Program-made: the position numbers and the translations under genes
The notes under the pieces: generated by a model
Databases searched by the model: none
What the model saw: only the letters and a program-made list of their open reading frames with translations
What the model was told of the DNA's origin: nothing
From: Candidatus Spongiisociaceae bacterium
GTDB lineage: Bacteria > Actinomycetota > Acidimicrobiia > Spongiisociales > Spongiisociaceae
Length of the DNA: 64,000 nt
Direction of reading: 5' to 3'
Assembly: GCA_965243165.1 (NCBI GenBank)
Contig: OZ251535.1
Location: forward strand, 1,602,246 to 1,666,245
In this document: positions 1-15,430 of the stretch, one piece after another
Numbering within the stretch: the stretch's first letter is position 1
Layout of the letters: each line of letters begins with the position of its first letter

Positions 1-55
1 GGTTGGAAATCGAACTTCGAAACATGATTGCCTGAGGTTCTTGTCCGGGCGGCCT
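1..55 (+). repeat. Partial copy (3' end only) of a ~300-350-bp non-coding repeat element also present at 46928-47225 (+) and 61141-61470 (-)
   Basis: Bases 1-50 (ggttggaaatcgaacttcgaaacatgattgcctgaggttcttgtcc) align to the reverse complement of 61141-61200 and to the 3' end of the 47.2-kb copy (gggttggatt...). The window starts inside the element. Confidence 0.6.
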
Positions 56-200
56 TGGAGGTGCCCGCTGGATGTCCGAACCGCCGGTGTATTGCGGATG
101 CCTGCGCAGATCGGTAGAGTCCGCGGTGATTCTTGTGCGCGTTGCGGCCTCTGCGGCTTCATAGAGCCGGTTCGCTCCGCGTGGAACGGATGTATCAGCC

Positions 201-1436
201 ATGAGGAGGATATCGAAGATGATGAAATACCGATGGTTGCGCCTGTCGTGCTTGGTCGTGTTCGCTTCGCTGGTGTTCGCCGCCTGCGGCGGCGATTCGA
301 GCGACGAGACGACGACCACCGCCGCCGCGCCCACCACCACGACCACCGCCGCGACGACCACGACCGCCGCGACGACCACCACCGAGGCCATGGCCGACGA
401 CATGGACAGCGACATGGCCGACGGCAGCGATATGGACGGCGATATGGCCGACGGCGGCGATACGGCGGGGGACATGGACGAAGTGGACATGGACTACCCA
501 ACCGCTGAATCGCTCGAGGGCTACAAAGCGGTGGCCCGCCCCGCGTCGCAGCGGTGGACGATCGGATACGGCGACGGCTTGTCGGGCATTCCGTTCACCG
601 ACTCGGTTACCGACAGCATCAACGAGGTGGCCGAGGCGATGGGCGTCGACATCGTCTACTGCGACAACGCATACGACCAGGAGAAGACGGTCCAGTGCTC
701 CGAGCTGATCGTGTCCCAGGGCGCCGACGGGGTGATCTTCGCCAACTGGATCGCGGGCACCGAGGAGCTGATCACGGGGATATTCCTCGACGCGGGCCTT
801 GTCTGCGTGGCTTACGACGGCCCCCATGAGGGTTGCAAGGCGTTCGGCCCCGACAACTACGAGGCTTCCGCAGAGGCGGGCCGCTTCTTGGGCCGGTACG
901 CCGTGAACCACGGTTGGGACCCGGCCGAGACCGAGCTGATCGTTCTCTGGACGCCGGGCGTGCAGGTGATGGCGGACCGCCGGGACGGCTCCATCGCCGG
1001 GGTGAAGGAGATCTTCGACATTCCGGATGAGAACATCCACACCGACATCCCGCACGAGACGTTCGAGGACGTCCAGGCCAACGTCACCTCTTGGGTCACC
1101 GCCAATCCCGAAGCCAAGAACGTGCTCTGCTTCGGCCACAGCGACCAGCCGGGCGTGGACTGCGCCGTGGCGTTGGAGGCGGGGGGGTTCCTGGGCCGGG
1201 CGGCGTCGGCCAGCCTGGGCGCCTCCGACGAGGCGCTGGTCGATCTCCGCACCCGGACCGACGAGGAGTCGATCTTCAAGGCCACCATCTCGTACTTCCC
1301 CGAGCGCTACGGCGAATACCTCGTTCCGATAGTGGTCGACATGCTCGAAGGCCGGGAGGGCGATGTTCCGGACAGGATCATCCCGGCGGTGTCGCCGGTT
1401 ACGCGCAACAACGTCATGGAGCTCTACCCCGGCTGA
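201..1436 (+). CDS. Sugar ABC transporter substrate-binding lipoprotein (periplasmic binding protein type I, ribose/monosaccharide family)
   Basis: 411 aa. N-terminal signal peptide with a lipobox (LVFAACGG), followed by a Thr/Ala-rich and Asp/Met-rich low-complexity linker. C-terminal PBP1 fold residues. Directly followed by the ATPase and permease genes. Confidence 0.8.
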   Translation: MRRISKMMKYRWLRLSCLVVFASLVFAACGGDSSDETTTTAAAPTTTTTAATTTTAATTTTEAMADDMDSDMADGSDMDGDMADGGDTAGDMDEVDMDYPTAESLEGYKAVARPASQRWTIGYGDGLSGIPFTDSVTDSINEVAEAMGVDIVYCDNAYDQEKTVQCSELIVSQGADGVIFANWIAGTEELITGIFLDAGLVCVAYDGPHEGCKAFGPDNYEASAEAGRFLGRYAVNHGWDPAETELIVLWTPGVQVMADRRDGSIAGVKEIFDIPDENIHTDIPHETFEDVQANVTSWVTANPEAKNVLCFGHSDQPGVDCAVALEAGGFLGRAASASLGASDEALVDLRTRTDEESIFKATISYFPERYGEYLVPIVVDMLEGREGDVPDRIIPAVSPVTRNNVMELYPG

Positions 1437-1454
1437 TAGGCCGGTCCTGATCAC

Positions 1455-1501
1455 GCCTTCGGAGGCCCGGAACCGCCTGTTCGATTCCGGGCCCCGAAGG
1501 C
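1455..1501 (+). terminator. GC-rich nested stem-loop between the SBP and ATPase genes (possible attenuator or weak terminator; no U-tract)
   Basis: An outer gccttcg...cgaaggc stem encloses a perfect 9-bp stem ggcccggaa/ttccgggcc. Position is intra-operonic, so it may set the SBP:ATPase transcript ratio. Confidence 0.3.
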
Positions 1502-1540
1502 GCGCGGGTGTAATATGCCCGAAATCCCGGTCGAAGGGTT

Positions 1541-2314
1541 ATGACAGACACCAAGCAGCCGTTGCTCACCATGAGGGGTGTGTCCAAGGCGTTCGGCCAC
1601 GTCCAGGCGTTGGTCGACGTCGACCTCGATGTAGAGCCCGGCGAGGTGATGGGCCTGCTGGGCGACAACGGGGCCGGCAAGTCCACTCTCATCAAGATAC
1701 TCTCCGGCGTCTACCGCGCCGACGAGGGGTGGTTCACCCGCGACGGCGCCGCCGCACACATAGCCAGTCCGAGCGACGCCCAAGCCCTGGGCATCGCCAC
1801 CGTCTACCAGGACTTGGCGCTGGTGGAGACGCGGGCGGTGGCCCACAACATCTACCTGGGGCGCGAGCCGCGCCGATGGGGGATGCTCAGCCGACGCAAG
1901 ATGGAAAAGGACGCCCAAGAACTCCTGACGAACCTCAACATAAACCTGCCGTCCGTCAAGGTGGATGTGGAGATTCTGTCCGGCGGGCAGCGGCAGGCGG
2001 TGGCCATCTCGCGGGCCCTTGCCCAGGGCGGGGACATCCTGCTGCTCGACGAACCCACCGCCGCGCTGGGCGTCGAACAGACCGAGCAGGTCCATCAGCT
2101 GGTGGGGAGCATGCGGGACCAGGGCAAATCGATCATCCTCATCACCCACGACCTGAGCGACGTGCTGAAGGTGGCCGACCGGATCGCGGTGCTGCGCCAG
2201 GGCCGACTCTGGGCCGACGTCCGGGCCGCCGACACCGACCTCAACCATATAATCGGCTGGATAACCGGCGCCCTGCCTTCCCAGTTCTCCAAGGCCGAGG
2301 AGGCGGCGGCATGA
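1541..2314 (+). CDS. Sugar ABC transporter ATP-binding protein
   Basis: Walker A GDNGAGKST, ABC signature LSGGQRQ, Walker B ILLLDEP. The upstream long ORF 1363.. is a fused-frame artefact. Confidence 0.9.
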   Translation: MTDTKQPLLTMRGVSKAFGHVQALVDVDLDVEPGEVMGLLGDNGAGKSTLIKILSGVYRADEGWFTRDGAAAHIASPSDAQALGIATVYQDLALVETRAVAHNIYLGREPRRWGMLSRRKMEKDAQELLTNLNINLPSVKVDVEILSGGQRQAVAISRALAQGGDILLLDEPTAALGVEQTEQVHQLVGSMRDQGKSIILITHDLSDVLKVADRIAVLRQGRLWADVRAADTDLNHIIGWITGALPSQFSKAEEAAA

Positions 2315-3300
2315 GCACCAGAACCGCCTATCTCAGAGAGCCGCTCCCCTTGTTGAAGAAGCTGTTCAGCGGCCGGGACTGGACCATCCCCGGCCTGATC
2401 CTGACGCTGGTTGCGCTGATGGTCTACTTCGGCGCCCAGTCGGAGTTCTTCTGGTCGGTCAGCAACTTCCTGAACATCGGGCGGTCGATATCCATCAGGG
2501 GCATCATCGCCATCGGGCTGACCATCGTGCTGATAAGCGGCGGGCTCGACCTGTCGATCGCGGCCGTGGCGGCCGTGGCGGGCATGGTGGCCGCCATGCT
2601 CATAGACACAGGCATGAACGGAATCCCGGCGGGGCTGATCGCCTTGGCCGCCGCCATGGTTCTGGGCGCCGTCAACGGTTCGGTCATCGTCAGGCTCCGC
2701 ATCAACCCGATCATCGCCACCCTCGCCACCCTGCTGCTCTTCCGGGGGATGGCCTACGTGGTGAGCGGCGGCGACAACGTCGTCATCGGGGTGAACACCT
2801 GGTCGTATCTCGGGCGGGGGACCTTCCTGGGAGTGCCCGTCGCCCTGCTGGTCATGCTGGGCATCATGGCCGCCGGCATCCTCTTCATGCGCTACTCGGT
2901 TCTCGGAAACTACCTGTATGCGATCGGCGGCAACTCCGAGGCCTGCCGCAACGTGGGGATGAAGGTCGACCGCATCCGCTTCGGCACCTACATGGCCACC
3001 GCGCTCCTGTCGGGACTCGCCGGCATCATCCTCATGTCCCAGGGAGGCACCGCGCAGCCCGCGGCCCTGAACGGCGCCGAGCTCGACATCTTCACTTCCG
3101 TGCTGCTGGGCGGGGTGGCCCTGACCGGCGGGCGGGGCAGCCTCTTCGGCACCCTGCTCGGCCTGTTCATCGTCGGCGTCATCACCAACGGGTTCATCCT
3201 CATCGGCCTCCAGATCTACTGGCAGGACGTCGCCCGGGGCGTCATCCTGATCCTCGCCGTAGCGCTGGACAGCATCCGCCGCGGCGGCGGCTACCGCTGA
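2311..3300 (+). CDS. Sugar ABC transporter permease (RbsC/BPD-type inner-membrane component)
   Basis: The ATG overlaps the ATPase stop (ATGA coupling). Multi-TM hydrophobic protein typical of ribose-type permeases. Confidence 0.85.
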   Translation: MSTRTAYLREPLPLLKKLFSGRDWTIPGLILTLVALMVYFGAQSEFFWSVSNFLNIGRSISIRGIIAIGLTIVLISGGLDLSIAAVAAVAGMVAAMLIDTGMNGIPAGLIALAAAMVLGAVNGSVIVRLRINPIIATLATLLLFRGMAYVVSGGDNVVIGVNTWSYLGRGTFLGVPVALLVMLGIMAAGILFMRYSVLGNYLYAIGGNSEACRNVGMKVDRIRFGTYMATALLSGLAGIILMSQGGTAQPAALNGAELDIFTSVLLGGVALTGGRGSLFGTLLGLFIVGVITNGFILIGLQIYWQDVARGVILILAVALDSIRRGGGYR

Positions 3301-3453
3301 CTTCGCGGGCGCCGGCCGGCGCCCTTGCGCGCCCTGGCCGCGATACGATTTGACGCGGGTATGAACAACGGGTCAACGGCGGTGATAAGATGGCAGCATC
3401 GCCGGCGGGCGCCGCGCCGAATCCGGCGGGGCGCAGTTTTCACAGGAGGCTCG

Positions 3454-3705
3454 ATGTCCGAACAGGCCCAGCCCGGACCAGGCGGCGGGCGCGCAGAAGC
3501 GAACCCCGACCTCGTCTTCGGCATGGCCGTGGCTAAGGGCGCCTTGGCGGGCATACCTGTGATGCTGGTGTTCCTCAGCATCGCCGTCTGGCTCATAACC
3601 GACCAGAGCGCGGTGGATTCGATCGTCATCGCCCTCCTGCCGGGAGTGCTGTTGGGGGTGTTCGGCGGCGGGTTCCTCGGCGTACTTCGGGGAATGGATC
3701 ACTGA
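3454..3705 (+). CDS. Small hypothetical membrane protein (2 TM)
   Basis: An aggagg RBS 8 nt upstream of the ATG at 3454. High GC3. Two hydrophobic helices. No recognisable family. Confidence 0.45.
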   Translation: MSEQAQPGPGGGRAEANPDLVFGMAVAKGALAGIPVMLVFLSIAVWLITDQSAVDSIVIALLPGVLLGVFGGGFLGVLRGMDH

Positions 3706-3779
3706 GACCGCACAGCAGGCAGGCGCAGCCCGAAAGAATCTTTGCCGATCGGGGGGCTTCCGCCCTCAGGGTATTCGAA

Positions 3780-4115
3780 TCACGAAAAACTGTCGATGGC
3801 GTCCTGCGTCGAGTCGTAGACCGCGATTATCTTGTCGAAGCCGCTTATCTTGAAGACGGCGCTGACCTGTTCGGACAACGCACAGACCGCAAATCTCCGT
3901 CCGGCCCTGTCCAGTTCCTTGGCGGTCAGCAGAGCAATCCGCAGCCCGGCGCTGTTCATGAACTCCACATCCTCCAAATCGAGGATCACATTTTGGTCGT
4001 TTTGGCCGACGGCCTCTTCGAGTTGCTCCTCGAAACCCTCGGCGCGGGCGCTGTCCAAGCGCCCCGAAGCCCTGAGGATCAACGCGCCTTCACGGCGCTC
4101 GGATACTATGGACAT
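3780..4115 (-). CDS. STAS-domain anti-sigma-factor antagonist (SpoIIAA/RsbV-like)
   Basis: Motifs ...LDLEDVEFMNSAGLRIAL... and a C-terminal ...ISGFDKII.. typical of STAS. Start taken at MSIVSE (4115), 2 nt after the HK stop. An alternative start at 4148 is possible. Confidence 0.8.
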   Translation of the reverse strand: MSIVSERREGALILRASGRLDSARAEGFEEQLEEAVGQNDQNVILDLEDVEFMNSAGLRIALLTAKELDRAGRRFAVCALSEQVSAVFKISGFDKIIAVYDSTQDAIDSFS

Positions 4116-4116
4116 C

Positions 4117-6360
4117 TCACACCTCCACTGTTTGTTCGTCCTCCGCAACTTCGTGCTGCGGTTTGGACAGAGGAAGTTCGATGATCATGGCGGTGAACTC
4201 CCCCTCTTCCGACTCTACCCTGATATTTCCGCCGTGCTCGCGGACTATGTCGCTGGTGAGGGCCAGACCGAGGCCGGTCCCCTCGTCGGTGGGTTTGGTG
4301 GTGAAGAAGGGGTTGAAGACCTTGTCGATCACTTCTTGGGGGATGCCGGTGCCGTTGTCCCGCACCACGACCACGGCTTTGTCCTCCTCGCGGCGGGTCT
4401 TGAGCAGCACCTTCGGCATGTACGGCCCATCTTCCTGCGGGGCTTTCTCCATCTCCGCCCGTTTCTTGTCGGTCGCATAGCAGGCGTTGCCCACCAGGTT
4501 GAGGAAGGTTCTCCCCAGGTCCTGGGTGATGGCGTCTATTTCTCCCATCTCCGGGTCGAGGTCCCGTTCGATGGTGAGGTTGAAGTTCGGGTCGGTCGCC
4601 CGGGCGCTGTGGTAGGCGAGCAGGGCGTGCTCGTTGAGCAGCTCGTTGAGGTCTACCCTCCGCCACTCGCCTCCGCCCCGGCCCATCATGAGCATGTCGT
4701 GCACGATGCGGTTGGCGCGCTCGCTGTGGTTGCGGATCCGCTTCAGGTTGTCGGTCAGGTCCTGGGTGATCTCGAGGATGAACTCCTTGGGGTCTTCGTC
4801 ATCCCCGTCACCGCCGCCCGACCCGCCGTTCTGGTCCAGGTCTTCCAGCTCTTCGATCAGCTCTTCGATCAGCTCCTCGGACACCTCCGAGAAGTTCTTG
4901 ATGAAGTTCAGCGGGTTGCGTATCTCGTGCGCCACTCCGGCGGTCACCTGGCCCAGAGCGGCCAGCTTCTCGCGCATGACGATCTGATCCTGGGCGCGCT
5001 GCAGATCCTCGAGCACCACCTCCAGCTGGCTGTTCTTCTCGCCCAGCTCCTCGGCCAGCTGCTCTACCAGGTTGAGCCGCTGCACCTCCAAGGCGTGGCG
5101 GCGGAACACCTCCAAAGCTTGAGCCATCTCGGCCACCTCGTCCTGCCCTTTCACGTCCACCTCTTCTTCCAGATCGCCCTCGGCCATGCGGCGCATCCGG
5201 GCCGACAGCTTGCCGATCCGGCGCACCAGGATGCGGCCCACGAACCCCCAGCTGATCAGCAGGGCCCCGGCGATGCCGACCGCGCTGATCACCAGCAGCA
5301 GGGTGCGTCCGGTGCCGATGGCCTGGGTGGAGGCGGCGTTGGCGGTGTTGGCGTCGACTTCGGCGGCGGTGACCAGCCGGTCCACCTGGCCGATCAGGTT
5401 GAGCGCCAAACCCTGGTTCTGCGCCATCAGAGCCTGCTGCTGGTTGCCCAGCTCCAGCCGCTGAATCAGCAGGTCGAAGCCGTCCCCCTCCTGAGAACCC
5501 ATCTCGAACAGCCGGTTGAAGATGGGTTGGATATCGGCCGTAAGCTCCGATTCGCCGAGGGTCCCCATGCTGATGGCGAGGTGGCCGGCGGCGGATTCGA
5601 AGCCCTCCTGCAGGGGCTCGATGAAGGCCGGGTCCGATACGTTGAAGGCGCTGGACATCTGCTGGGCGGCCACGGTCGCCTCGGACAGCAGCGCCGACAG
5701 GTGGCGGTAGCGGTTGAACTCGGGCGGGGACATATGCAGCTCGCGCGGCGCCGGCGCCGCCCCCAGCTCCCGGTAGCCGGTTATCTGGTAGAAGAGCTGA
5801 TCGTCGATGGCCGGGACCACGATGTTTTCGAGGCGGCTGCGCAGGTCGATCAGTTCCAGCCGCAGGGCTTCTCTCCTGGCGTTCAGATCGAATATCTGGG
5901 GCATGGCCTCCTCGATGGTGTCCAGGTTGGCGAACAGCGTCTGGGAGTTGCTGCGGATGCTCTCGAAGCGTTCTCTGATCAGCCAGTCGCTGAAGCCGCC
6001 TTCGGGGTCGGCCAACTGGCCCATGCCGCCCTCCATGATCTCGATCTGTTCTTCGAAACCCTGCCTCGCCCGGGCTATCTCCAGCGAGACGGAGGTCAGC
6101 TCGGCGGGTGTGCCGGTGCTGGTCAGGCGGGGGGCGGCCGCCGCCAAGGTGCTGGTGTACTCGGCGATGCGGAGCGCCGAGGTCATCTCGGGCAGGCTCA
6201 CCTCGGACACCTGGGTCTGGGCGGAGTCCACCCGGTTGAACGAGATCCAGCCCACCACGCTGGCGGCGATGGTCAGCATCAGGGCGGCGCCGATGCCCAT
6301 GTACATCTGAGTAGAGATGCGGTTGCGGAGAGCCAAAATCCGCTTCACCCGGTCGAGCAC
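4117..6360 (-). CDS. Sensor histidine kinase with a large (~330 aa) periplasmic sensor domain, HAMP, HisKA and HATPase_c
   Basis: 747 aa. A TM helix follows the N terminus and a second TM lies near aa 340. H-box AHEIRNPLNFI. G-boxes DNGTGIP...GTGLGLAL. Contains the in-frame repeat ELIEELIEELEDL. Confidence 0.85.
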   Translation of the reverse strand: MLDRVKRILALRNRISTQMYMGIGAALMLTIAASVVGWISFNRVDSAQTQVSEVSLPEMTSALRIAEYTSTLAAAAPRLTSTGTPAELTSVSLEIARARQGFEEQIEIMEGGMGQLADPEGGFSDWLIRERFESIRSNSQTLFANLDTIEEAMPQIFDLNARREALRLELIDLRSRLENIVVPAIDDQLFYQITGYRELGAAPAPRELHMSPPEFNRYRHLSALLSEATVAAQQMSSAFNVSDPAFIEPLQEGFESAAGHLAISMGTLGESELTADIQPIFNRLFEMGSQEGDGFDLLIQRLELGNQQQALMAQNQGLALNLIGQVDRLVTAAEVDANTANAASTQAIGTGRTLLLVISAVGIAGALLISWGFVGRILVRRIGKLSARMRRMAEGDLEEEVDVKGQDEVAEMAQALEVFRRHALEVQRLNLVEQLAEELGEKNSQLEVVLEDLQRAQDQIVMREKLAALGQVTAGVAHEIRNPLNFIKNFSEVSEELIEELIEELEDLDQNGGSGGGDGDDEDPKEFILEITQDLTDNLKRIRNHSERANRIVHDMLMMGRGGGEWRRVDLNELLNEHALLAYHSARATDPNFNLTIERDLDPEMGEIDAITQDLGRTFLNLVGNACYATDKKRAEMEKAPQEDGPYMPKVLLKTRREEDKAVVVVRDNGTGIPQEVIDKVFNPFFTTKPTDEGTGLGLALTSDIVREHGGNIRVESEEGEFTAMIIELPLSKPQHEVAEDEQTVEV

Positions 6361-6362
6361 GG

Positions 6363-7598
6363 CTATCTCTCCCTCATCCGGTCGGTGGGCTGGTAGCGCC
6401 CGTCGGGGCCTATGACGGTCAGGAACACCCGGTCCGATCCTTGGTTGTCGCCCTCACCGTAGCTGAGCGGGAATTCGTCCAAGGCGAGTTCTTGGGCCGT
6501 CAACAGAGCGTCGAGGAAGCAGGCGCGGGTGAGGCCGGCCCCGCACCCCTCCAGTCCGGCCACCGCCAGCCTGCCCGACAGATAGCCCTCCAGAGACACG
6601 AACCCGGGCTCCGCATCGGGGTCGTAGTCGGACAGCGCCCGCAGGTACGAGTCCACCACCGGCAGCGAATCGTCGGTGGGGAAGGGCACTACTTGGGTTA
6701 CGTACACCCCCTCGCCGTAGCCTCCCAGCTCTTCCAGTGACTGGGCCAAGGCGTTGCTGCCCACGAACGAGATCGTTATGAACACCGGGTCGAAACCGGA
6801 GTGGCGCGCCCAGGCGATCAGCTCCGCCACCGGGCGGTAGGCGCCCACGATGATCACCCCCTCGGGTTCACCCGCCATGAGGTCTATCAGCCCGGTCTTC
6901 ACCGCGGTGGTGTTGCGGGGGTACAACCCGATGGCCGTAGGCCTCATGCTGCGCCGGGTCAGGGCGGCCAGCGCCCCCCCGTAGCCGGCGCGACCGAAGG
7001 AATCGTCCTGGTACATGATGGCGATGCGCTCGATGCCCAGGTCCTCGGTCATGCGGGCGACCATCTCCTCGGTTTCCTGGGCGTAGGAGGCCCGCAGGTT
7101 GACGATGTTCGTCCAGCTGTCGTCGCGCAGGAAGGCGGCGCCGGTGAAAGGCGCCACGAAGGGTGTGTCCGCCTCGGCCGCCACGGGCGTGGCCGAGCGG
7201 GAGGTAGGCGTCCCCACCTCGCCGATCAGGGCGAATACCCGTTCCTCGTTGATCAGCTGCTGGGTGTTGGCGATGGCCGCCTCCGGTTCGTAGCCGTCGT
7301 CCAGGGTCACCAGCTCGAGGCGCCGGCCGTGGACTCCGCCCGACTGGTTGGCTTCGTGGAAGGCGGCCTCGATGCCCAGCCGCATGCCTATGCCGAGTTC
7401 TTGGGCGGGGCCGCTGAAGGCGGCCGACTGACCGAACACCACCCGGTCTTCGAACACCCCCGGCGTGTTCGCCGGCCTGGGGCGGGTGGAGGCGGTCGTG
7501 TCCGCCGCGCCGGCGGCGGCGGTGACGGCGGGGGCGCTGCTGGACGGCCCGCCGTTGCCGGAACCGCATCCAACTGCTAACAAGGCAACGGCCCCCAA
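6363..7598 (-). CDS. Periplasmic solute-binding lipoprotein, Liv/branched-chain-amino-acid (PBP1 type I) family, encoded inside a signalling operon
   Basis: A lipobox LLAVGCGS is followed by an Ala-rich linker and a LivK/J-like fold (RVVFGQSAAFSGP...). The track start at 7598 is a TTG. The gene overlaps the HK start. No ABC permease or ATPase genes are adjacent. Confidence 0.75.
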   Translation of the reverse strand: MGAVALLAVGCGSGNGGPSSSAPAVTAAAGAADTTASTRPRPANTPGVFEDRVVFGQSAAFSGPAQELGIGMRLGIEAAFHEANQSGGVHGRRLELVTLDDGYEPEAAIANTQQLINEERVFALIGEVGTPTSRSATPVAAEADTPFVAPFTGAAFLRDDSWTNIVNLRASYAQETEEMVARMTEDLGIERIAIMYQDDSFGRAGYGGALAALTRRSMRPTAIGLYPRNTTAVKTGLIDLMAGEPEGVIIVGAYRPVAELIAWARHSGFDPVFITISFVGSNALAQSLEELGGYGEGVYVTQVVPFPTDDSLPVVDSYLRALSDYDPDAEPGFVSLEGYLSGRLAVAGLEGCGAGLTRACFLDALLTAQELALDEFPLSYGEGDNQGSDRVFLTVIGPDGRYQPTDRMRER

Positions 7599-7639
7599 TC
7601 CGAGGGCGAAGGGCAGAGCACCTGTCCGGCGGCGGGGCT

Positions 7640-8074
7640 TTATTTGTCCCTCCCGATCTCCAGGGTCAAGTAGTTCCGGTCGGTTTCTCTTCGGTAGCTG
7701 ATCTCGTCCACCATCGTCTTGATCAGGTAGATGCCCAGCCCTCCGATCGGCCGGGACTCCAGCGGGGAGTTCAGATCAGGCAGGGGAGCGTCGGTCAACG
7801 GGTTGAAAGCAGGGCCGTCGTCCGACAGCTCCACAACTACCGATTCCGGTTGAGAATCGATCGTTATCTCATACTCCTCCAATCCGTTTGCCCTCCCATG
7901 TGTAAGAGCATTGACCTCCAGCTCTTCGAGGACCAGATTGACCGTGTATACCAGCTTGGGGGGCCAGCCTTCCTTTTCGCCGAGCATGACTATCTCGGAG
8001 TACACGTGATCCAGCAAGGCGGAGTTGGTGTCTTCCGCCTTGAGATCGATCTTCAGAGAGAGCGAACCCTTCAA
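7640..8074 (-). CDS. Anti-sigma regulatory factor / serine protein kinase (RsbW/SpoIIAB-like GHKL)
   Basis: 144 aa. Motifs ...VNLVLEELEVNALTHG... and ...GGLGIYLIKTMVDE. Overlaps the upstream PP2C gene by 4 nt. Confidence 0.8.
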   Translation of the reverse strand: MKGSLSLKIDLKAEDTNSALLDHVYSEIVMLGEKEGWPPKLVYTVNLVLEELEVNALTHGRANGLEEYEITIDSQPESVVVELSDDGPAFNPLTDAPLPDLNSPLESRPIGGLGIYLIKTMVDEISYRRETDRNYLTLEIGRDK

Positions 8075-9243
8075 TTGCCGTCCTCGCTGTAGAACAAAGT
8101 CAGGCAGGTGATGTCGTCCGACTGCACGGTATCGCCGGCGAAGGCATGCACCGCTTCGAAGATCGCTCGGTTCGCCTCCTTGGAATTCTTGGGGGGTGAT
8201 CCCTTGAATACATCTTGGAAACGGTTCATTCCAAACTCTTCCTGATCGGCGTTCATCGCCTCGGTTACACCGTCGGTGTAGAGTATCAAAGTGTCTCCCG
8301 GCGAGAGGCTTATCGTGCTCTGGGGATAGGAGAGGCCGGGAGCTATGCCCAGCGCCACCCCGCCGATGTAAGGGAGCAAAGTGGAGCTGCCGTCGCTGTG
8401 GACGATGAGGGGCGGGTTGTGTCCGCCGTTGGCGTATGTCAACACGCCGTCATCTGGAGAATAGACCGCGTATATGACGGTCACGAACAGGCCGGCTTCA
8501 TTGTCTTCGTGGAGCAGATTGTTGACATCCTCCATGACCTTGCCGGGTTCTTCGAGTCCGATGGCTGTTCCCTTCAGCAAGGTTCGGCTGGACATCATGA
8601 AGAGGGCAGCCGGCACTCCCTTGTCGGAGACATCAGCTATAGCTATACCAACGCGGCCGTCCTCCAGCTTGAAAAAATCATAGAAGTCACCCCCCACATC
8701 TCGGGCGGGCTCCATGTTGGCCCATATTTCATAGTTGATGTCCTTTGGAAAGCGGGTGGGCAGGATCGACTGCTGCATCTTGTTGGCGACATTCAACTCG
8801 TTTTGGAGAGTGATCAATTTGTCCCTGGAAGCGAGGGCTTCACGCCATTCGATCATGTGCTTCAAGGTGCGGTCGATGGTGTGCCGAAGGTCATCAAAAT
8901 CCAAAGGTTTGGTGACGAAATCGAAGGCACCTCGGTTCATGGCGGTTCTGATGTTCTCCATGTCGCCGTAGGCCGAGATTATTACCGAGCGGATGTTGGG
9001 GTCGACCTTAGGTATCTGTTCGAGCAAGGTCAAACCGTCCATCTGCGGCATGTTTATGTCGGAGAGAACCATATCTATGTCTTGGTAGTAGTTCAGCTTT
9101 TCCAGGGCATCGATGCCGTTGTGGGCAAAGACGAACTCATACTTGCCCCTTCTGATGGAGCGCCTCATACGCTGCAGGATGAGGGGCTCTACATCTGGCT
9201 CATCGTCCACGACCAGTATCTTGTATTTGTCCTTTAGTTCCAC
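8071..9243 (-). CDS. Response-regulator receiver fused to a PP2C/SpoIIE serine phosphatase (RsbU-like)
   Basis: N-terminal REC domain (ILVVDDEPD...DMVLSDINMP...DFVTKP). C-terminal PP2C domain (GGDFYDF...IADVSDKGVPAALFM...TDGVTEA). Noticeably lower GC (~50%) than the neighbouring genes. Confidence 0.85.
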   Translation of the reverse strand: MELKDKYKILVVDDEPDVEPLILQRMRRSIRRGKYEFVFAHNGIDALEKLNYYQDIDMVLSDINMPQMDGLTLLEQIPKVDPNIRSVIISAYGDMENIRTAMNRGAFDFVTKPLDFDDLRHTIDRTLKHMIEWREALASRDKLITLQNELNVANKMQQSILPTRFPKDINYEIWANMEPARDVGGDFYDFFKLEDGRVGIAIADVSDKGVPAALFMMSSRTLLKGTAIGLEEPGKVMEDVNNLLHEDNEAGLFVTVIYAVYSPDDGVLTYANGGHNPPLIVHSDGSSTLLPYIGGVALGIAPGLSYPQSTISLSPGDTLILYTDGVTEAMNADQEEFGMNRFQDVFKGSPPKNSKEANRAIFEAVHAFAGDTVQSDDITCLTLFYSEDGN

Positions 9244-9319
9244 TTTCTAGCTCACACTTCGGTATCGAGGGCTGGTGTTCCTGCTCGGCACAGGATTGAT
9301 CAGGAGTCGACCGGCTCGA

Positions 9320-9658
9320 CTAGCCCTGCAAGGCTGAAGACGCCGCGGCAAGGTCATCGTGAACATCTATGATCTGGTCGAAGCCGCTGATCATGAAGAT
9401 CTCGCGAACCATGTCGGACAGAGAGCAGATCGCGAACTTCTTGTCCTTTTGCTTGAGGTCCTTGGCGATCAACAAGATGACCCTGAGGCCGGCGCTGCTG
9501 ATGTAGTCGAGGTTCTCGAAGTCCAGGATCACAGTGCCGTCCTCGGAGGTGATCACAGCTTCCACCGAGTTCTGGAATTCGGAAGCGTTGGAGCCGTCGA
9601 TGCGGCCGTCGGTCTTTACGACCAGCTTCCCGCCTTCTCTTTCCGTGTTGATATTCAC
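9320..9658 (-). CDS. STAS-domain anti-sigma-factor antagonist, second copy
   Basis: Motifs LDFENLDYISSAGLRVIL and ISGFDQIIDV. First gene of the minus-strand operon. Confidence 0.8.
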   Translation of the reverse strand: MNINTEREGGKLVVKTDGRIDGSNASEFQNSVEAVITSEDGTVILDFENLDYISSAGLRVILLIAKDLKQKDKKFAICSLSDMVREIFMISGFDQIIDVHDDLAAASSALQG

Positions 9659-10034
9659 TTGGCCAGTCCTTTCCCTCGGAGTCCGTGTGCACCCGGAGGC
9701 CGCGCGGCGCCTCTGGCCGGCAGTCTAACAGGTTGGAGTGTAACACCTCCCCGTCTGCCCCGGTCGGCCGCCGGGCCGCGCCGGGCGGGGCGGCCCGGCG
9801 GTTCCGGCTTGCGGGCGGCCCCGCCTTCGATCGTTCACAGGGGCCGGGCGAGGCCGAGGACACCGGCAAAGCTCCCCTCTGACCTGGGGGTTGTCTCCGC
9901 AGGCAACCTTCTGCTCCGAGTCCAGGCCGAGGCCCCGCCCGCAGGCGTTCAACAACCGGAGAAATTGTATCATCGGCCCGGGGCCCTGCCCGCCGGCGGG
10001 CGGGCCGTCGATTCGAGAACTCGGGAGGAGAGAC

Positions 10035-11306
10035 ATGCGGTCGGGGAAGGCGCGGCCAGAAGGGGGGCTGCGCAGGCAGCTGGCGGTGTGCGGGGCGTCG
10101 ATGCTCTTGGCGGCGGCCTGCGCCCCGGATTACACACCGGGGCCTCTGGGGGCGGTGGAGGTGGGGCCGGGGGAGAAGATCCAGGTGCGGATGTTCCTGT
10201 CCCCCGACGAGGGGGGGTCGGGCATCACCAACCAGCGGATCGTACCGATCGCCTTGGAGCACTACGGACCGGTCCGCGGTTTCGAGGTGAGCCTCGGCGG
10301 CGGCAACGTCGACGACGACTGCACCCCCGAGGGCGGGCGGTCCGCCGCGCAGACGATCATCGACGAGGGGCGGGTGATAGGAGTGATCGGCACCACCTGT
10401 TCGGCGGCGGCGGCCGAGGCGTCGCCCCTGCTGACCGGGGAAGGGTTGGTGATGATCTCGTCGACCAACACCTCCCCGAGGCTCACCTCCGACCTGGCGG
10501 GCAACCCCGGCGAGTACCGCCGCGAAGGGTATTACCGGACTTCGGACAACGACCTGCTCCAGGGCGCCTCGGTGGCGCGGTTCCTGCACCTGGAGAAGGG
10601 CGTCACCAGGGCGGCGGCGGTCCACAACGGCGACGTGTACACCGAGAGCCTGGCCCGGGCCTTCGCCGGCTCGTTCCGGGGAATGGGGGGTGAGATCGTC
10701 TGGTTCGGCGCGGTGGACGAATCCCGGGAGGACATGTCGGCGGTGCTCGCCGAGATGGCGGCCGGCTCGCCCCAGGCGCTGTACTTCCCCGTCAGCAGGG
10801 AGAACGCCTTTGGATTGGTGCAGGGCGCGGCGGAGACGGCCGGTATGGAAGACGTCCTGCTGCTCACCTCCGACGCTTTGCTGGAGGACATCTTCATGGA
10901 GCGGGAAGAAACCGAGGGGGTGTTCTTCTCGGGGCCCGACAACCGCTTCCGCGGCGCCGAGAACCAGAGCACCGGACAGCACGCAGCCGACATCCTCGCC
11001 GAGTACCGGGCGGAGTACGGCCATGATCCTGAGACCCCCTTCTGGGCCCACACCTACGACGCCGCCGTGCTGCTGCTCGACGCGATCGAGGCCGCCTCCT
11101 TCGTGGACGGCGGGACGCTGGTGGTGGACCGGTCCGCAGTGCGGGAGCATCTGAACGGGATTTCGGAGTACGGGGGGATCATCGGGTCGATCACCTGCGA
11201 CGAGTTCGGCGACTGCGGGGTGGGGAAGCTGGTCGTCATCGAGCACATCGACTCCGGCGGCCTGGCCGCCTCCAAGGCCAACATCGTCTACGAGTTCGGA
11301 ACCTGA
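10035..11306 (+). CDS. Liv-type (branched-chain amino acid/amide) ABC substrate-binding lipoprotein, orphan
   Basis: ATG at 10035 preceded by a gggaggag RBS. Signal peptide with lipobox LAAACAP. Motif GVIGTTCSAAA, typical of the LivJ/K family. No transporter genes follow it. Divergent from the partner-switching operon. Confidence 0.8.
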   Translation: MRSGKARPEGGLRRQLAVCGASMLLAAACAPDYTPGPLGAVEVGPGEKIQVRMFLSPDEGGSGITNQRIVPIALEHYGPVRGFEVSLGGGNVDDDCTPEGGRSAAQTIIDEGRVIGVIGTTCSAAAAEASPLLTGEGLVMISSTNTSPRLTSDLAGNPGEYRREGYYRTSDNDLLQGASVARFLHLEKGVTRAAAVHNGDVYTESLARAFAGSFRGMGGEIVWFGAVDESREDMSAVLAEMAAGSPQALYFPVSRENAFGLVQGAAETAGMEDVLLLTSDALLEDIFMEREETEGVFFSGPDNRFRGAENQSTGQHAADILAEYRAEYGHDPETPFWAHTYDAAVLLLDAIEAASFVDGGTLVVDRSAVREHLNGISEYGGIIGSITCDEFGDCGVGKLVVIEHIDSGGLAASKANIVYEFGT

Positions 11307-11403
11307 GCGCCTCCCCCCGGCGGGCCTGAAGAGGCGGTGATCCCGAAGGGGAGGGCGGGGCGGTTAGCATGGGCGCGCGCTCGGTATCGCGGAAAGGAAT
11401 CGA

Positions 11404-11856
11404 ATGCTCGAAGCCCTGTTGTTCTTGCACATCCTCGGGGCGGCGGCCTGGTTGGGCGCCAACCTGGTGCGGGCCTTGGCCGGCCGGGCCTTTGCGAAGG
11501 GAGAAGACGCCGCCGCCGCCTCCTGGCACCGGACCACCATCACCGTCGGGCGGTTGATCCACACCCCGGCCGCCGTAGTGGTGTTCATCACGGGGTTCGG
11601 CCTGATCGGGATGTCGGAAGGCCGCTTCGAGATGACCGACCCCTTCGTGGTGGTCGGCATCATCGTGGTCGTGGTGGGGGCGGTGCTCGGCATGGCCGTG
11701 CTGGGCCCCAACGGAGAGCGGATCGCCTCCGCCTACGAGCAGGGCGACCGCCAGCTCGCCGAAACAGTGGCCCGCCGCTCGAGCGTGGTCGGATGGTTCG
11801 ACACCGCATTGGTCGCCTTCGCCACCCTGGTCATGGTGCTCCACTGGGGCGCCTGA
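11404..11856 (+). CDS. Hypothetical integral membrane protein (4 TM, DUF2269-like)
   Basis: 150 aa and highly hydrophobic, with host-like GC. Confidence 0.5.
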   Translation: MLEALLFLHILGAAAWLGANLVRALAGRAFAKGEDAAAASWHRTTITVGRLIHTPAAVVVFITGFGLIGMSEGRFEMTDPFVVVGIIVVVVGAVLGMAVLGPNGERIASAYEQGDRQLAETVARRSSVVGWFDTALVAFATLVMVLHWGA

Positions 11857-11892
11857 GGTTCGTCATGCTCAAGGCCTGATCGAAGCGGCCGG

Positions 11893-12339
11893 TCAGATAG
11901 TTTTTCCGCCGCACTTCCGCACCCTCGGTAAAAGGGCTGTGCCGTTGGCCTGCCGCAGTGGTCCATACCGCCTTGTGTCTACTCTTCTTCTATACTTGTA
12001 GGCCAACAAAACCTGTGGTCTGTATGATCCAAGTTCGCCGAACTGCTCGGAATTTTCAGCTATAATATTCAAACCCGATTGTACTTGTTCCCAAGCCTTC
12101 TTACGCAGTTGTCTCTTTATCTCTATTACAAACCACTCGTATCTGTTGTTATATTTTCTTAGTACAAGAAGGTCTGGTTTCTTCGTTCCTTTTTCAAGAA
12201 ATGACTGGCATTTATCACAATCTATAGCCATCAGGAATCCCTGGAAGTCAAGGACACATTCTTGATGATCTATAGGGTTGCCGGAAATCAAGCACCCGTG
12301 TTGAAAGTGGATGGCACGTAGGTGCTCTACTTCTATCAC
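11893..12339 (-). CDS. Small protein with a PD-(D/E)xK-like nuclease core, translationally coupled to the upstream AAA ATPase (candidate defence effector)
   Basis: 148 aa in a low-GC (~40%) segment. A GTG start overlaps the ATPase stop (GTGA). Contains ...KPDLLVL...YEWFVIEIKRQ.. (D...ExK). Cys/His-rich N terminus (HFQHGC...H.EC...CDKC). Confidence 0.55.
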   Translation of the reverse strand: MIEVEHLRAIHFQHGCLISGNPIDHQECVLDFQGFLMAIDCDKCQSFLEKGTKKPDLLVLRKYNNRYEWFVIEIKRQLRKKAWEQVQSGLNIIAENSEQFGELGSYRPQVLLAYKYRRRVDTRRYGPLRQANGTALLPRVRKCGGKTI

Positions 12340-13790
12340 GCTAGTAGATCTAATAGATCTGCTGTGTCTTCTGACAGCTCGTTGGCGACCTCAAGGTACT
12401 CGTCTTCGGATATACCCCAGTCAGGCTCAATTATTTCTTGAGTGACCCGAACAGGTCCAGCAGATTGGGAGTGTTGGAACCTATATACAGCTATATCATC
12501 AATAGCAATGTGCTCAGTACCTGGATATGTATCAGTATTCTTATTTAGTTTATTCTTCAATTGCCCCCGCAGGATACAATTCGATAACTCATGAAGTAAT
12601 ATCGAACTGTGTGTTGCACATACCACCTTTATGCCCTGGTTGACCAGGCCGACCAAGACTCGGGCAACGAGTCGAATGGCCTCGGGATGCAAATGTGATT
12701 CTGGTTCATCGATGATGAGCAGATCGTTGGGTGATACGAGGTGTTCCATCCACATGGCTAGGGGAGCAAGGTCCGCTACCATTGAAGAAGCGCGATGGAC
12801 CGCGATCCTGTGTCCATCTTGTTGATATTCCAGGGTAGGGACCATATTCTCCGCTGATCCTGCCCGGATACTGCCCCCCATGACTTCTCTCAATAGAGTT
12901 TGTGTGCCAGTTGTATCGGATTTGTCATCTCTGCGGGATCTAGTCTGGGAGTGTGGTCGGCGCGAGCCTATTATATTCGCCAATGACGAGACGAAATCCA
13001 AGGCGACTCCACCGAGTGAGGAGTCAGGAATTTTGGACAAGCCAAATCGCTTTTTGTCGAGATCCAAGCGCAATTTTATCACATCGGTCCACGCATTGAG
13101 CAAACCTGATCTTCCGGCTGGCAGATAATGTGCCTTACCATTTAGGCCTATGCGGCGAAAAAACTCACTCCAGACCGTGCTTGTTATAAGAAAAGATATC
13201 TCCCGATTACGTATCCCTTTGTCTCCCTCCTTTTTACTCATATTCTGCCAAAACATGAACTCGGATCGGATGTAATTACCTGACTTGTCCAAAGTAAGAA
13301 ATTTGTCTGGCACTTTAAGCGGACGCAGGGATCCAGTTTCAGCATTTTTGAAAAGACAAGTTCTCGCTTTATCTATTAGATCTTGATGGAGTTCGACCTT
13401 TATTTCTGTTGGTTGGTCCCATCTTGTTATATCTCCTAGGTCTGGTACTCCAAAATATTCCAGTAGATAATTCTGGAGCTCATCCCCGGAGTTATTGAGT
13501 AGGTTATTGATCCAATAATTGGCTTTATCTTCTAGCTCAGACGGAAACTTAAATGGATACTCGGAAGCAGTCTGTGCTGCTCGCAATAGGAGCTCTATTT
13601 CATCATCATCTAGGGCGTCTAGCAAGCCATAGGGCTTTACTGCTTTGTGGGTTGCATAGATAGCCTGGGCAAGGTAGGTCTTGCCCGTATTGTTCTTTCC
13701 TATCAGCACAGTGAGAGGCTTCAGCTCGACGTCGGCGTGTTCGATAGGGCCGAGATTCTCGACCACGAGTCTGAGATTGGTTGCGCCCAT
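12336..13790 (-). CDS. AAA_21/ABC-type (OLD/PtuA/AriA-like) ATPase, candidate anti-phage defence ATPase
   Basis: Walker A LIGKNNTGKT. Walker B with the diagnostic LLIIDEPESHLHP. His-loop VCATHS. ATG at 13790 preceded by a ggaaggaaggga RBS (the track's 13808 start is a TTG). Low GC relative to its flanks. Confidence 0.8.
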   Translation of the reverse strand: MGATNLRLVVENLGPIEHADVELKPLTVLIGKNNTGKTYLAQAIYATHKAVKPYGLLDALDDDEIELLLRAAQTASEYPFKFPSELEDKANYWINNLLNNSGDELQNYLLEYFGVPDLGDITRWDQPTEIKVELHQDLIDKARTCLFKNAETGSLRPLKVPDKFLTLDKSGNYIRSEFMFWQNMSKKEGDKGIRNREISFLITSTVWSEFFRRIGLNGKAHYLPAGRSGLLNAWTDVIKLRLDLDKKRFGLSKIPDSSLGGVALDFVSSLANIIGSRRPHSQTRSRRDDKSDTTGTQTLLREVMGGSIRAGSAENMVPTLEYQQDGHRIAVHRASSMVADLAPLAMWMEHLVSPNDLLIIDEPESHLHPEAIRLVARVLVGLVNQGIKVVCATHSSILLHELSNCILRGQLKNKLNKNTDTYPGTEHIAIDDIAVYRFQHSQSAGPVRVTQEIIEPDWGISEDEYLEVANELSEDTADLLDLLA

Positions 13791-13862
13791 GTCCCTTCCT
13801 TCCGACAACAGCTTAGCCTGTCCTTGGGGCGTATTGGCTCTATGTCAGCCCGAACGCCCAGT

Positions 13863-14579
13863 TTATTGCGGAAGGCTGCGGATGGTCTCGAGGGCGATCC
13901 TCACCATGCCGTCGAAGGTGCGCTCCCGCTCGTCGGGGGAGGAGGCTTCGCCGGTGACGAGGTGGTCGGAGACGGTAACGACGGCCAGCGCCCGCGCCCG
14001 CTCCTCGGCGGCGATGGCGTACAGCCCGGCCGCTTCCATCTCCACCGCCAGCACCCCCATCCGCTGCCAGATCTCGAGGGCGTTGTCGTAGGTGTTGTAG
14101 AACAGGTCGGAGGTGTGGAGGTTGCCGACGCGGGCCTCGATGCCCAGCCGGCCGGCGGCGTCGGCGGCCGCCCGCAGCAGCCCGAAGTCGGCGGTGGGGG
14201 CGTAGTCCCATCCGTTGTAGCGCCGGCGGTTGACGGTCGAGTCGGTGCAGGCGCCGATGGCCAGGATCGCATCCTTCATCTTCACGTCGGGGGAGATGCC
14301 GCCGCAGGTGCCCACCCGGATGAGGTTCTTCACCCCGTAGGTGCGGATCAGCTCGGTGATGTAGATGGACGCCGACGGCACCCCCATGCCGGTGCCCATC
14401 ACAGACACCGGAACGCCCCGGTAGGAGCCGGTGAACCCCAGCATGTTGCGGACCGAGGTCACCTCCGCCGCGTCTTCGAGGAAGGCCTCGGCTATGTAGC
14501 GGGCGCGCAGCGGGTCGCCCGGCAGCAGGATCGACTCTGCGAACGCCCCTTCGGGGGCCGATATATGGGGGGTGGCCAC
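13863..14579 (-). CDS. deoD: Purine nucleoside phosphorylase, DeoD type
   Basis: 238 aa. Motif [12 protein letters not shown]...VGTCGG...MEAAGLY, hallmarks of the PNP/UDP family 1. Confidence 0.9.
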
Positions 14580-14695
14580 AGATTCCTCCTTCTCCTCGGC
14601 GGGCGGCTCGGGCTCGGGCGCCTCGGCCGGCCCCGTCTTCGTTCCACCATGTGGTACGGTTGCCCGCGAGTCTAGACCCGCCCCGGGGAGGCCGA

Positions 14696-15430
14696 ATGAG
14701 CAGCGTGCGGTCCATCGAGCGGGCCTTCGCGTTGCTCGAGGCCGTCTCGGTTTCCGAGCAGGGGGTCACCGGCCTGGCCGAACGGGCGGGCATTCCCAAG
14801 AGCACGGCGGCGCGGATCCTCAAAACCCTGGAAACGATGGGGGCGGTGGAGAGGGCGCAGGAGGGCGTCTACCGGATCGGGCCCAAGGTGTACGGGCTGT
14901 CCGCCGCCCGGAGCCGGTCGGCCGAGCTGCTGCACAAGGCCCGCCCCCGCCTCGAGATGCTGGCCAGGGTGCTGGGCGAGGACGCCGGGCTGGCGGTGCA
15001 GGACGGCAACCAGGTCCACTTCATCGCCCAAGAAGACGCCGACAACAACGTGGTGGTGCGGGACTGGACGGGGACGCTGCTCCCTATGTACGTGGTTCCT
15101 TCCGGCCTGGTCATCCTGGCCCACTGGCCGCCGGACCAGCTGGACCGCTACCTGAGGGAGAAGCTCAAGCCCTACACCCGGCGCACGGTTACGGATCCGG
15201 CGCTCATCCGCAAGCGCCTGAAACGCATCCGCGAGGAGGGGTGGGCGTGGGTCATCGAAGAGTTCGTGGAGGGCATCAACTCGGTCGCCTCCCCCGTCTA
15301 CGACGACCGCGGGCGGGTGCTGGCCGCCGTCCACGTGCACGGCCCTTCCTACCGCTTTCCGGGCCGGTCCTCCCAGGGGGCGATCGCGGCCGAGGTGGCC
15401 CGGGCGGCGGCGCAGGTTTCCTCCTACTGA
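14696..15430 (+). CDS. IclR-family transcriptional regulator
   Basis: N-terminal HTH (RAFALLEAV...[23 protein letters not shown]) and a C-terminal IclR effector domain. Confidence 0.85.

Follow-up and report, generated by a model that had tools for sequence, protein, structure and literature searches.

We analysed a 64,000-nt stretch of the genome of a Candidatus Spongiisociaceae bacterium (contig OZ251535.1, positions 1,602,246 to 1,666,245 of the forward strand), hereafter the window, in which six minus-strand open reading frames (ORFs) at 3780-9658 encode two STAS proteins, a fusion of a receiver and a serine phosphatase (REC-PP2C), an RsbW-like serine kinase, a solute-binding protein (SBP) and a sensor histidine kinase (HK). 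Five of these genes constitute one conserved cassette, not an ad hoc assembly, and their order (STAS, REC-PP2C, RsbW, SBP, HK) is repeated on independent contigs of related organisms. Judging from the encoded proteins, we consider it probable (about 0.6) that they make up a self-contained two-stage signalling cassette, in which an SBP/HK input would act on a STAS switch whose target is encoded elsewhere. The fixed combination of genes, the input module composed of a Peripla_BP_6 protein and a TorS-like sensor, and the cross-phylum spread among sponge-associated bacteria are new.

All six ORFs of the original prediction were present, and Pfam assigned each of the domain labels proposed there. 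The cassette and its surroundings are as follows.

9320-9658, minus strand: STAS1, cassette gene 1, a single-domain STAS protein of the anti-sigma-factor-antagonist type, 112 aa (Pfam STAS, E 8e-21)
8071-9243, minus strand: REC-PP2C, a fusion of a receiver and a SpoIIE/PP2C serine phosphatase, 390 aa (Pfam Response_reg, E 3e-24; SpoIIE, E 3e-51, 175 bits)
7640-8074, minus strand: RsbW-like serine kinase, 144 aa (Pfam HATPase_c_2, E 4e-23, 82 bits)
6363-7643 (or from 7598), minus strand: SBP lipoprotein with a putative signalling role (Pfam Peripla_BP_6, E 4e-49; lipobox LAVGC)
4117-6360, minus strand: sensor HK, 747 aa, with a first transmembrane segment (TM1), a predicted TorS-type sensor of ~310 aa, a second transmembrane segment (TM2), HAMP, HisKA and HATPase_c
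3780-4115 (ORF from 4148), minus strand: STAS2, 111 aa from the ATG at 4115 (Pfam STAS, E 1e-22)
9659-9890, no strand: presumed promoter region, intergenic between STAS1 and a divergent orphan binding-protein gene, proposed from its position only

Gene content and conservation of the cassette

Relatives of the cassette were collected by a one-genome-per-species scan, which returned at least 593; the best 80 of them were taken as loci and belong to Acidimicrobiia, Chloroflexota (mostly Dehalococcoidia), Acidobacteriota, Gammaproteobacteria, Latescibacterota and Spirochaetia. Eighty-four loci were fetched, and ORF clustering was performed on 82 after removal of two L003 duplicates; ORFs were called by the longest-ORF rule, and the starts and some gene calls are approximate. 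When the six proteins of the window were searched against the 84 loci by tblastn, order and strand were the same almost everywhere, with identities to the window proteins of 63-86% for REC-PP2C, 55-84% for SBP, 43-80% for HK, 36-76% for RsbW and 45-81% for STAS. The most conserved component was REC-PP2C (63-86% identical between six phyla), which has more than 8000 database relatives, the best 120 clusters being each at least 70% identical. The ORF cluster of REC-PP2C was present in all 82 loci, those of RsbW and SBP in 80 each and that of HK in 78, and a STAS gene was found nearby in 70. Only these five genes were conserved over the 82 loci, the remaining large clusters being antisense shadow ORFs. 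In longest-ORF calls, 45 of 74 loci have a 4-nt overlap between the RsbW stop and the SBP start, and 46 of 76 have one between the SBP stop and the HK start. In this comparison of synteny, which the original prediction had recommended, the five-gene order proved to be conserved across loci. Our literature searches, on the cassette in sponge symbionts and on partner switches combined with an SBP, found no description of it.

Some variation was seen around the core. The STAS gene lies past HK on the opposite strand in Gammaproteobacteria, Bryobacterales and Latescibacterota. STAS2 clusters with an additional STAS protein that we found only in the nearest relatives L001/L005, where its gene follows an Amt gene, and that is missing from L003; because of this restricted occurrence, we regard the five genes as the core and STAS2 as a local, lineage-specific extra. 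REC-PP2C homologues also occur on Bacteroidota plasmids (43-47%), beside kinases and without RsbW or STAS, and are uninformative for the output.

The residues expected of a working switch are retained. Both STAS proteins pass the NCBIfam model TIGR00377 (86 bits for STAS1 and 83 bits for STAS2, cut-off 53). The motif YISSAGL of STAS1, with the phosphorylatable Ser55, is conserved in 80 of 81 cassette STAS proteins, and the corresponding motif of STAS2, FMNSAGL, retains a phosphorylatable serine. This serine is the residue phosphorylated in SpoIIAA- and RsbV-type proteins. In REC-PP2C, receiver residues D13, D14, D62, S90 and K112 and phosphatase residues D186, D189, D204, D324, D376 and D377 are invariant in all 83 aligned sequences. 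The N (EELEVNALTHG), G1 (DDGPAF) and G2 (GGLGIYL) boxes of the RsbW-like kinase are readable in its translation, and its only family matches are weak, sub-cut-off ones to RsbW and RsbA models (RsbW 21 bits against a cut-off of 145). All catalytic motifs of the window cassette are intact in the predicted proteins. The complete STAS/PP2C/kinase switch that had been proposed was hence found with its domains and conserved residues in place and with no linked sigma factor.

The genes of the window cassette are closely packed, the 76-nt gap between STAS1 and REC-PP2C being the sole real spacer. REC-PP2C shares 4 nt with RsbW; a 2-nt spacer separates the SBP stop (TAG) from the GTG start of HK, itself preceded by GGGAGAG; and STAS2 most likely starts at the ATG at 4115, which stands behind GGAGG, 1 nt past the HK stop. 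At the RsbW/SBP junction, the genes overlap if SBP starts at ATA 7643, or else are separated by a 41-nt gap ending at TTG 7598. The SBP ATG overlaps the RsbW TGA as ATGA in most lineages, whereas a comparison of window 7641-7643 (minus strand) with L085, L086, L001 and L005 revealed ATAA or ATAG throughout the window clade. The peptide in frame from the ATA (K/E-x-RRR, a hydrophobic stretch and the lipobox) is kept in this clade with synonymous changes; TTG 7598, the first canonical codon, would leave just 10 residues ahead of the lipobox cysteine. The SBP start in the window is probably a non-canonical ATA at 7643-7641 that overlaps the RsbW stop, and the pattern suggests either a conserved non-canonical AUA start or termination-reinitiation. 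A scan of window 3500-10000 for promoter and terminator consensus sequences gave nothing exceeding chance, including at 9659-9890, and Rfam gave no match in window 1-16000.

The original prediction had put the switch genes at ~50% GC and HK at ~69%, and had taken the difference as a hint of modular acquisition. The switch genes are indeed lower in GC, but the measured values are 54-56% for STAS1, REC-PP2C and RsbW and 64.8% for HK; SBP stands at 68.9% and STAS2 at 58.5%, and the low-GC block corresponds to 7640-9660. Over 72 loci, mean GC at third codon positions (GC3) is 0.765 for REC-PP2C, 0.755 for SBP and 0.772 for HK, and GC at codon positions 1 and 2 is ~0.51, 0.58 and 0.54, respectively. 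As GC3 is equal and positions 1 and 2 differ, the lower GC of the switch genes would mainly reflect the amino-acid composition of very constrained proteins. Separate acquisition of the switch and sensor halves was not borne out, since the five genes form one unit in 78-82 of 82 loci and their trees are congruent. A step in GC might also betray a chimeric metagenome assembly that joined two organisms at the RsbW/SBP boundary, and GC does drop from ~0.69 to 0.52-0.57 exactly over 7640-9660. Nevertheless, the same junction and order are found in independent assemblies from other samples (L085, L086, L092, L001, L005 and L003) and the same arrangement in 78 further genomes, the RsbW/SBP junction sequence is itself conserved, and the GC difference lies mostly at codon positions 1 and 2. 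With independent contigs carrying the same junction, we rejected a chimera, which we regard as scarcely credible.

The binding protein and the sensor kinase

HK has two hydrophobic segments (approximately residues 19-41 and 351-379) on either side of an all-helical extracytoplasmic domain. Such a domain had been proposed, and its placement between two hydrophobic segments held, but its size is roughly 310 aa and not 330 aa. H478 and N621 are invariant in 79 kinases, with near-invariance at the other positions of the N, G1, F and G2 boxes. HK is non-hybrid, with neither a receiver nor an HPt domain, and the cassette has one HK and one receiver. The Pfam family TorS_sensor_domain is matched by 23 of 50 aligned HK homologues at E <= 0.001 (best E 6.6e-9), among them P0193 at 32.6 bits against a cut-off of 27. 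An AlphaFold model of HK built on 50 homologues is all helical across residues 60-330, with a pLDDT of ~90, and in this predicted structure the sensor is a double four-helix bundle of the TorS type. The top NCBIfam match of HK is likewise TorS (TIGR02956), at 150 bits against a cut-off of 676; HK falls far under this cut-off because it lacks both receiver and HPt domains.

In all hosts, SBP is an extracytoplasmic protein whose N-terminus tracks the host envelope: a lipobox and a long linker are found in Chloroflexota and Acidimicrobiia; in the diderm phyla (Gammaproteobacteria, Acidobacteriota and Latescibacterota), a plain Sec signal peptide runs straight into GVSD..ILFGQSAAFSGPA. Many of its residues are invariant, including Q57, S58, Y103, T130, T132, F151, T152, G153, R158, R169, S171, Y172, Q197, D199, S200, Y226, R228, N229, T230, Q302, E337 and Y339. 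The original prediction had envisaged an amino-acid-like ligand, which is conjectural; on profile scores, SBP is not an orthologue of LivJ/K (PRK15404, 43 bits against a cut-off of 477) or of UrtA (26 against 493). The nearest solved structure is the uncharacterised 4kv7 (E 2e-76).

Homologues of SBP with 52-54% identity occur in the cultured Alphaproteobacteria Ruegeria sp. TM1040, Phaeobacter inhibens and Terrarubrum flagellatum, where their genes lie immediately upstream of a gene for a methyl-accepting chemotaxis protein and without a transporter. These SBPs belong to the same subfamily, and the receptors combine a TorS-like sensor with HAMP; in Terrarubrum, the two genes overlap by 4 nt, and the receptor aligns with window HK residues 28-442, from TM1 through the sensor to HAMP (E 9e-24), and matches TorS_sensor_domain across its full length. 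The alphaproteobacterial pairs differ from the cassette in their output, a methyl-accepting chemotaxis domain in place of a histidine kinase, and in having no partner-switch genes. As SBP and the TorS-like sensor are joined to a kinase here and to a chemoreceptor in Alphaproteobacteria, we regard them as a portable input module, reused with kinase or chemoreceptor outputs. The 3lop-like Ralstonia homologues (36% identity) were also considered as receptor-linked, and were rejected as orphan genes without an adjacent receptor; receptor linkage is limited to the closer SBP subfamily, outside which they fall.

The closest known counterpart is TorT/TorS of E. coli and Vibrio parahaemolyticus (PDB 3o1h, 3i9w). 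TorS is the textbook example of a kinase under the control of a periplasmic binding protein: TorT, docked on a sensor of this type, switches the kinase (PMC8050422). HK of the cassette would share with TorS the double four-helix-bundle sensor, but TorT is a TMAO-binding protein of the Peripla_BP_1/4 group, and the cassette SBP is a Peripla_BP_6 protein. In addition, TorS is a hybrid (REC and HPt) that feeds the DNA-binding TorR; the non-hybrid HK, which does not reach the TorS family cut-off (150 bits against 676), is proposed to feed a phosphatase. The only Peripla_BP_6 case among the tabulated characterised SBP-dependent receptors is the archaeal chemotaxis pair BasB/BasT, and the pairing of Peripla_BP_6 with a TorS-like sensor is absent from them (PMC8050422).

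The predicted TorS-type fold, the translational coupling, the lack of a transporter in 80 loci and the chemoreceptor-paired homologues all speak for the SBP-HK pair as a ligand-sensing input, as had been suggested; we regard this idea as strongly supported and sharpen it to a TorT/TorS-like mechanism. The original prediction had further described a non-transport SBP between kinase genes; no transporter genes were found within the cassette in the 80 loci, and no permease or ATPase is conserved there, from which we take SBP to be dedicated to signalling. If SBP were instead an ordinary component of an ABC transporter (e.g. for branched-chain amino acids), the transporter would have to be encoded elsewhere or just downstream on the opposite strand. 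Peripla_BP_6 is mostly a transport family, some SBPs have a dual role in transport and signalling (PMC8050422), and a BPD_transp_2 permease and an ABC ATPase are in fact encoded 500 bp past STAS2. The original prediction had asked whether such a permease lies just outside the cassette: it exists, but as part of a convergent operon equipped with a binding protein and an ATPase of its own, and this operon is not beside the cassette in L001, L003 or the 80 genome loci. Most loci moreover show translational coupling of the SBP gene with those of RsbW and HK; SBP scores 43 bits against the LivJ/K cut-off of 477, and its closest cultured homologues pair with chemoreceptors and not with permeases. 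A transport role is accordingly very unlikely in our judgement, and we keep to SBP as a sensory protein.

The convergent operon itself, at window 201-3300 on the plus strand, is a three-gene ABC transporter comprising a binding protein that matches Peripla_BP_1 weakly, a 257-aa ATPase and the BPD_transp_2 permease (~2311-3300). It ends ~500 bp from STAS2; contig L092, of the same species, has it as well, but in other genomes it does not adjoin the cassette.

Distribution among phyla and habitats

Neighbour-joining trees of REC-PP2C, SBP and HK were congruent, with the phyla interleaved. In a tree of the concatenated proteins (1506 columns, 100 bootstraps), the Terriglobia locus L007 fell within Dehalococcoidia (88% bootstrap), three Spirochaetia grouped with the Dehalococcoidia loci L014/L018/L030 (80%), and Gammaproteobacteria, Bryobacterales, Thermoanaerobaculia and Latescibacterota formed one clade with a member of Caldilineaceae (83%). 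L007 and Dehalococcoidia loci also have in common an extension of the cassette in the order HK, circularly permuted ATP-grasp (CP_ATPgrasp), Amt. The whole cassette appears to move horizontally between phyla. Ca. Spongiisociaceae is an Acidimicrobiia family by taxonomy, and the window clade comprises the window, L001/L005, L003 and L010, whose loci have flanking genes in common; this clade is vertically coherent and not itself evidence of transfer.

Several of the metagenome-assembled genomes (MAGs) that carry the cassette are documented from sponges: RHO3_bin_74 and RHO3_bin_54 from Rhopaloeides odorabile, COS2_bin_4 and COS1_bin_18 from Coscinoderma matthewsi and SB0661_bin_55 from Ircinia ramosa, with COS4_bin_44 the sister of COS1_bin_18 in the MAG tree (supplement of PMC8163846). 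L010 belongs to a family named for its sponge association, and for the remaining MAGs we infer the sponge link from their taxa. The sponge-MAG study reports lateral transfer of sponge-enriched genes, with no mention of signal transduction or histidine kinases (PMC8163846).

How sponge symbionts of many phyla sense their host is largely uncharted, comparisons so far having centred on eukaryote-like proteins, defence systems and carbohydrate enzymes. One cassette with a 55-84% identical extracellular SBP in at least six phyla is a concrete, testable handle, and the ligand of a single SBP could reveal a cue read by much of the sponge consortium. It is tempting to go further and regard the cassette as a device for host sensing that is specific to the sponge niche and shared horizontally within its microbiome, through which unrelated phyla would read one sponge or community metabolite with the same SBP and respond post-translationally via STAS (e.g. 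by gating Amt in place of GlnK control), synchronising the nitrogen physiology of the consortium; we offer this as a decidedly improbable speculation.

Proposed circuit, candidate outputs and neighbouring genes

In the circuit we propose, the SBP lipoprotein would bind a small molecule outside the membrane and dock on the TorS-type double four-helix-bundle sensor of HK, as TorT does on TorS, and docking would set the kinase/phosphatase balance of HK. HK would phosphorylate the receiver of REC-PP2C and switch its serine-phosphatase activity; because each cassette has one non-hybrid kinase and one receiver, this transfer is the parsimonious link, and it would conform to the pattern of RsbK-RsbY of Bacillus cereus and of HptB-HsbR of Pseudomonas. 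REC-PP2C and the RsbW-like kinase would set the phosphorylation of the STAS protein(s) at Ser55 in opposite directions, and unphosphorylated STAS would capture the RsbW-like kinase, changing what the kinase or STAS is free to bind. The final target would be encoded elsewhere. The five-gene core would have been inherited and exchanged horizontally as one unit among several phyla, many of its carriers being sponge symbionts, with STAS2 as a local addition.

Each part of this circuit has relatives. In Bacillus cereus, the histidine kinase RsbK controls the REC-PP2C protein RsbY, which dephosphorylates the STAS protein RsbV and is opposed by RsbW; sigB is in the operon, and RsbK is a hybrid kinase that is not known to have a binding-protein partner. 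The cassette has REC-PP2C and a co-encoded HK but no sigB, and its proposed input is extracytoplasmic and SBP-dependent. Pseudomonas RssB (REC-PP2C) with RssC (STAS) shows the same two-domain architecture and STAS partner as the cassette. The RssB model NF045505 was the best NCBIfam match of the window REC-PP2C, at 115 bits and far below the equivalog cut-off of 700; to our knowledge, RssB has no adjacent SBP-HK pair or RsbW-type kinase. In HptB-HsbR(PA3346)-HsbA(PA3347) of Pseudomonas aeruginosa, CrsR-CrsA of Shewanella and SypE-SypA of Vibrio fischeri, a receiver-controlled PP2C and an RsbW-type kinase act on the conserved serine of STAS, and the outputs are not always a linked sigma factor, SypE/SypA governing colonisation of an animal host (PMC8256260). 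Kinase, receiver and phosphatase are fused in one protein in HsbR, CrsR and SypE, whereas REC-PP2C and the kinase are separate genes in the cassette; the input of those systems is a phosphorelay (HptB) or undefined, and that of the cassette would be the co-encoded SBP and HK. Sigma-less partner switches are already known (SypE/SypA, BtrUVW, RbaVW and PA3346/PA3347; PMC8256260), and the one confirmed here is not new as a category. The cassette does provide a well-populated natural series of such switches, three-gene versions included, for an output search.

The original prediction that no sigma factor target accompanies the cassette agreed with our scans: no sigma-70-type motif was found in the 64-kb window by a regular-expression scan, which is weak for extracytoplasmic function (ECF) sigmas, and no sigma gene was conserved next to the cassette in 80 loci by motif scans, which may overlook divergent ECF sigmas. 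Of sigma genes, these scans saw only rpoD adjoining a copy of the cassette, in the gammaproteobacterial loci L060, L061 and L074, where it runs on the REC-PP2C strand and stops 40-170 nt upstream of that gene (about 5930-7831 in L074). A sigma factor of the host is our single most likely guess for the final target, at somewhat less than even odds. The circuit would then be a classical anti-sigma one, with the cassette as RsbU/V/W-type input and switch and the RsbW-like kinase sequestering an unlinked sigma factor, alternative or primary. Both STAS proteins pass the superfamily model of anti-sigma-factor antagonists, the kinase matches RsbW and RsbA families only, and its low conservation (36-53% between phyla) would fit adaptation to host-specific partners after transfer; rpoD stands directly upstream and on the same strand in three gammaproteobacterial loci, and RsbW of Chlamydia reportedly targets the primary sigma factor, a precedent for such a target. 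On the other hand, motif scans of 80 loci and of the whole window found no conserved sigma gene adjoining the cassette in 77 of the former and none at all in the latter, the RsbW-model score is far sub-cut-off (21 bits against 145), and a sigma-less cassette that crosses phyla would need a compatible target in each recipient. The adjacency to rpoD concerns only two related lineages and may be an accident of the insertion site.

Our second guess, a possible but unlikely one, is a target other than a sigma factor, connected with the uptake of ammonium or the handling of nitrogen. Here unphosphorylated STAS or the kinase would act post-translationally on ammonium uptake or assimilation, for example on Amt in the place of GlnK, and SBP would sense a nitrogen-containing metabolite of the host or community. 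An Amt gene lies within 8 kb of the cassette in 18 of 80 loci of Actinomycetota, Chloroflexota, Acidobacteriota and Latescibacterota, in several arrangements (L001, L005, L006, L007, L014, L018, L021, L027, L030, L036, L043, L053, L054, L056, L062, L063, L073 and L077). Amt and STAS genes are adjacent and co-directional in L001/L005, in L043/L054/L063 (Latescibacterota) and in L027; the Amt-adjacent STAS is the sole STAS near the cassette in Latescibacterota, and STAS2 of the window is the orthologue of the Amt-linked STAS in L001/L005. Genes for CP_ATPgrasp, Alpha-E and transglutaminase recur beside the cassette too, and STAS proteins with non-sigma targets exist (SypA, BtrV and RbaV; PMC8256260). 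Nevertheless, at least one of these neighbours is present in only ~24 of 80 loci, and ~56 have none; the window has none of the four and no Amt in its 64 kb. The Amt linkage may partly reflect a few transfers of a longer segment and not function, and the literature searched contained no STAS-Amt link. The Amt neighbourhood is a lead, not a finding, and a sigma factor stays our first guess. At these loci, Amt genes often form a pair with a STAS gene or lie amid the circularly permuted ATP-grasp, Alpha-E and transglutaminase genes, and no glnK was noticed adjoining them.

Several points weigh against the two-stage signalling cassette as we describe it. We infer each contact between proteins and each phosphotransfer, as well as the ligand and the output, and the binding, phosphotransfer and phosphorylation steps all rest on homology; no output was identified. 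On the sensor side, the window HK itself is below the Pfam TorS threshold, with a weak 4HB_MCP_1 match only, and a PDB sequence-profile search with the HK alignment returned kinase cores only and not TorS, which is why a fold search was needed; SBP is a Peripla_BP_6 protein and not of the TorT family, so that the docking geometry may differ. On the switch side, RsbW is the least conserved component (36-53% identical between phyla), and the Spirochaetia loci (L022, L026 and L033) consist of REC-PP2C, SBP and HK, neither RsbW nor STAS being present within 8 kb. Their phosphatase may act on different substrates, or the genes of its partners may lie in another part of these genomes. In the window clade, STAS1, REC-PP2C and RsbW have a GC3 deficit relative to SBP and HK (window, 0.72 against 0.88; L001/L005, 0.53 against 0.84; L003, 0.54 against 0.74/0.66) that our model does not explain, and the gene trees show no different donor behind it. 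As to the spread, the trees are neighbour-joining ones only, and a sponge origin is documented in only 7 of 80 loci, the other MAG records stating no source.

Further features of the window lie upstream of the cassette. A second, orphan Peripla_BP_6 lipoprotein gene at 9891-11306 (plus strand, true start probably near 10035) is divergent from STAS1 and is not accompanied by transporter genes of its own; it was found beside the cassette only in the closest relatives of the window (L001, L005, L086 and L092). We considered its product as a paralogue of the cassette SBP and rejected this, the relation being distant only; the gene is limited to the window clade and was thus excluded from the cassette.

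Farther on, at 11893-13808 on the minus strand, lies a low-GC island (43-50% against ~68%) that encodes a 490-aa AAA_15/AAA_21 ATPase, matching PADLOC PD-T4-4_A over its full length (E 2e-46), and a 148-aa partner ORF with no family match. In contig L092, from another sample, the flanks of the island are 98.85% identical to those of the window, and the 776 nt of the island at the contig end (window 12195-12970) are only 80.5% identical; from its sequence, we take the island for a probable hypervariable defence locus. The final ~150-190 bases of L092 match window 47065-47215 (90%) and 61141-61342 (84%), which points to a repeated element or gene family.

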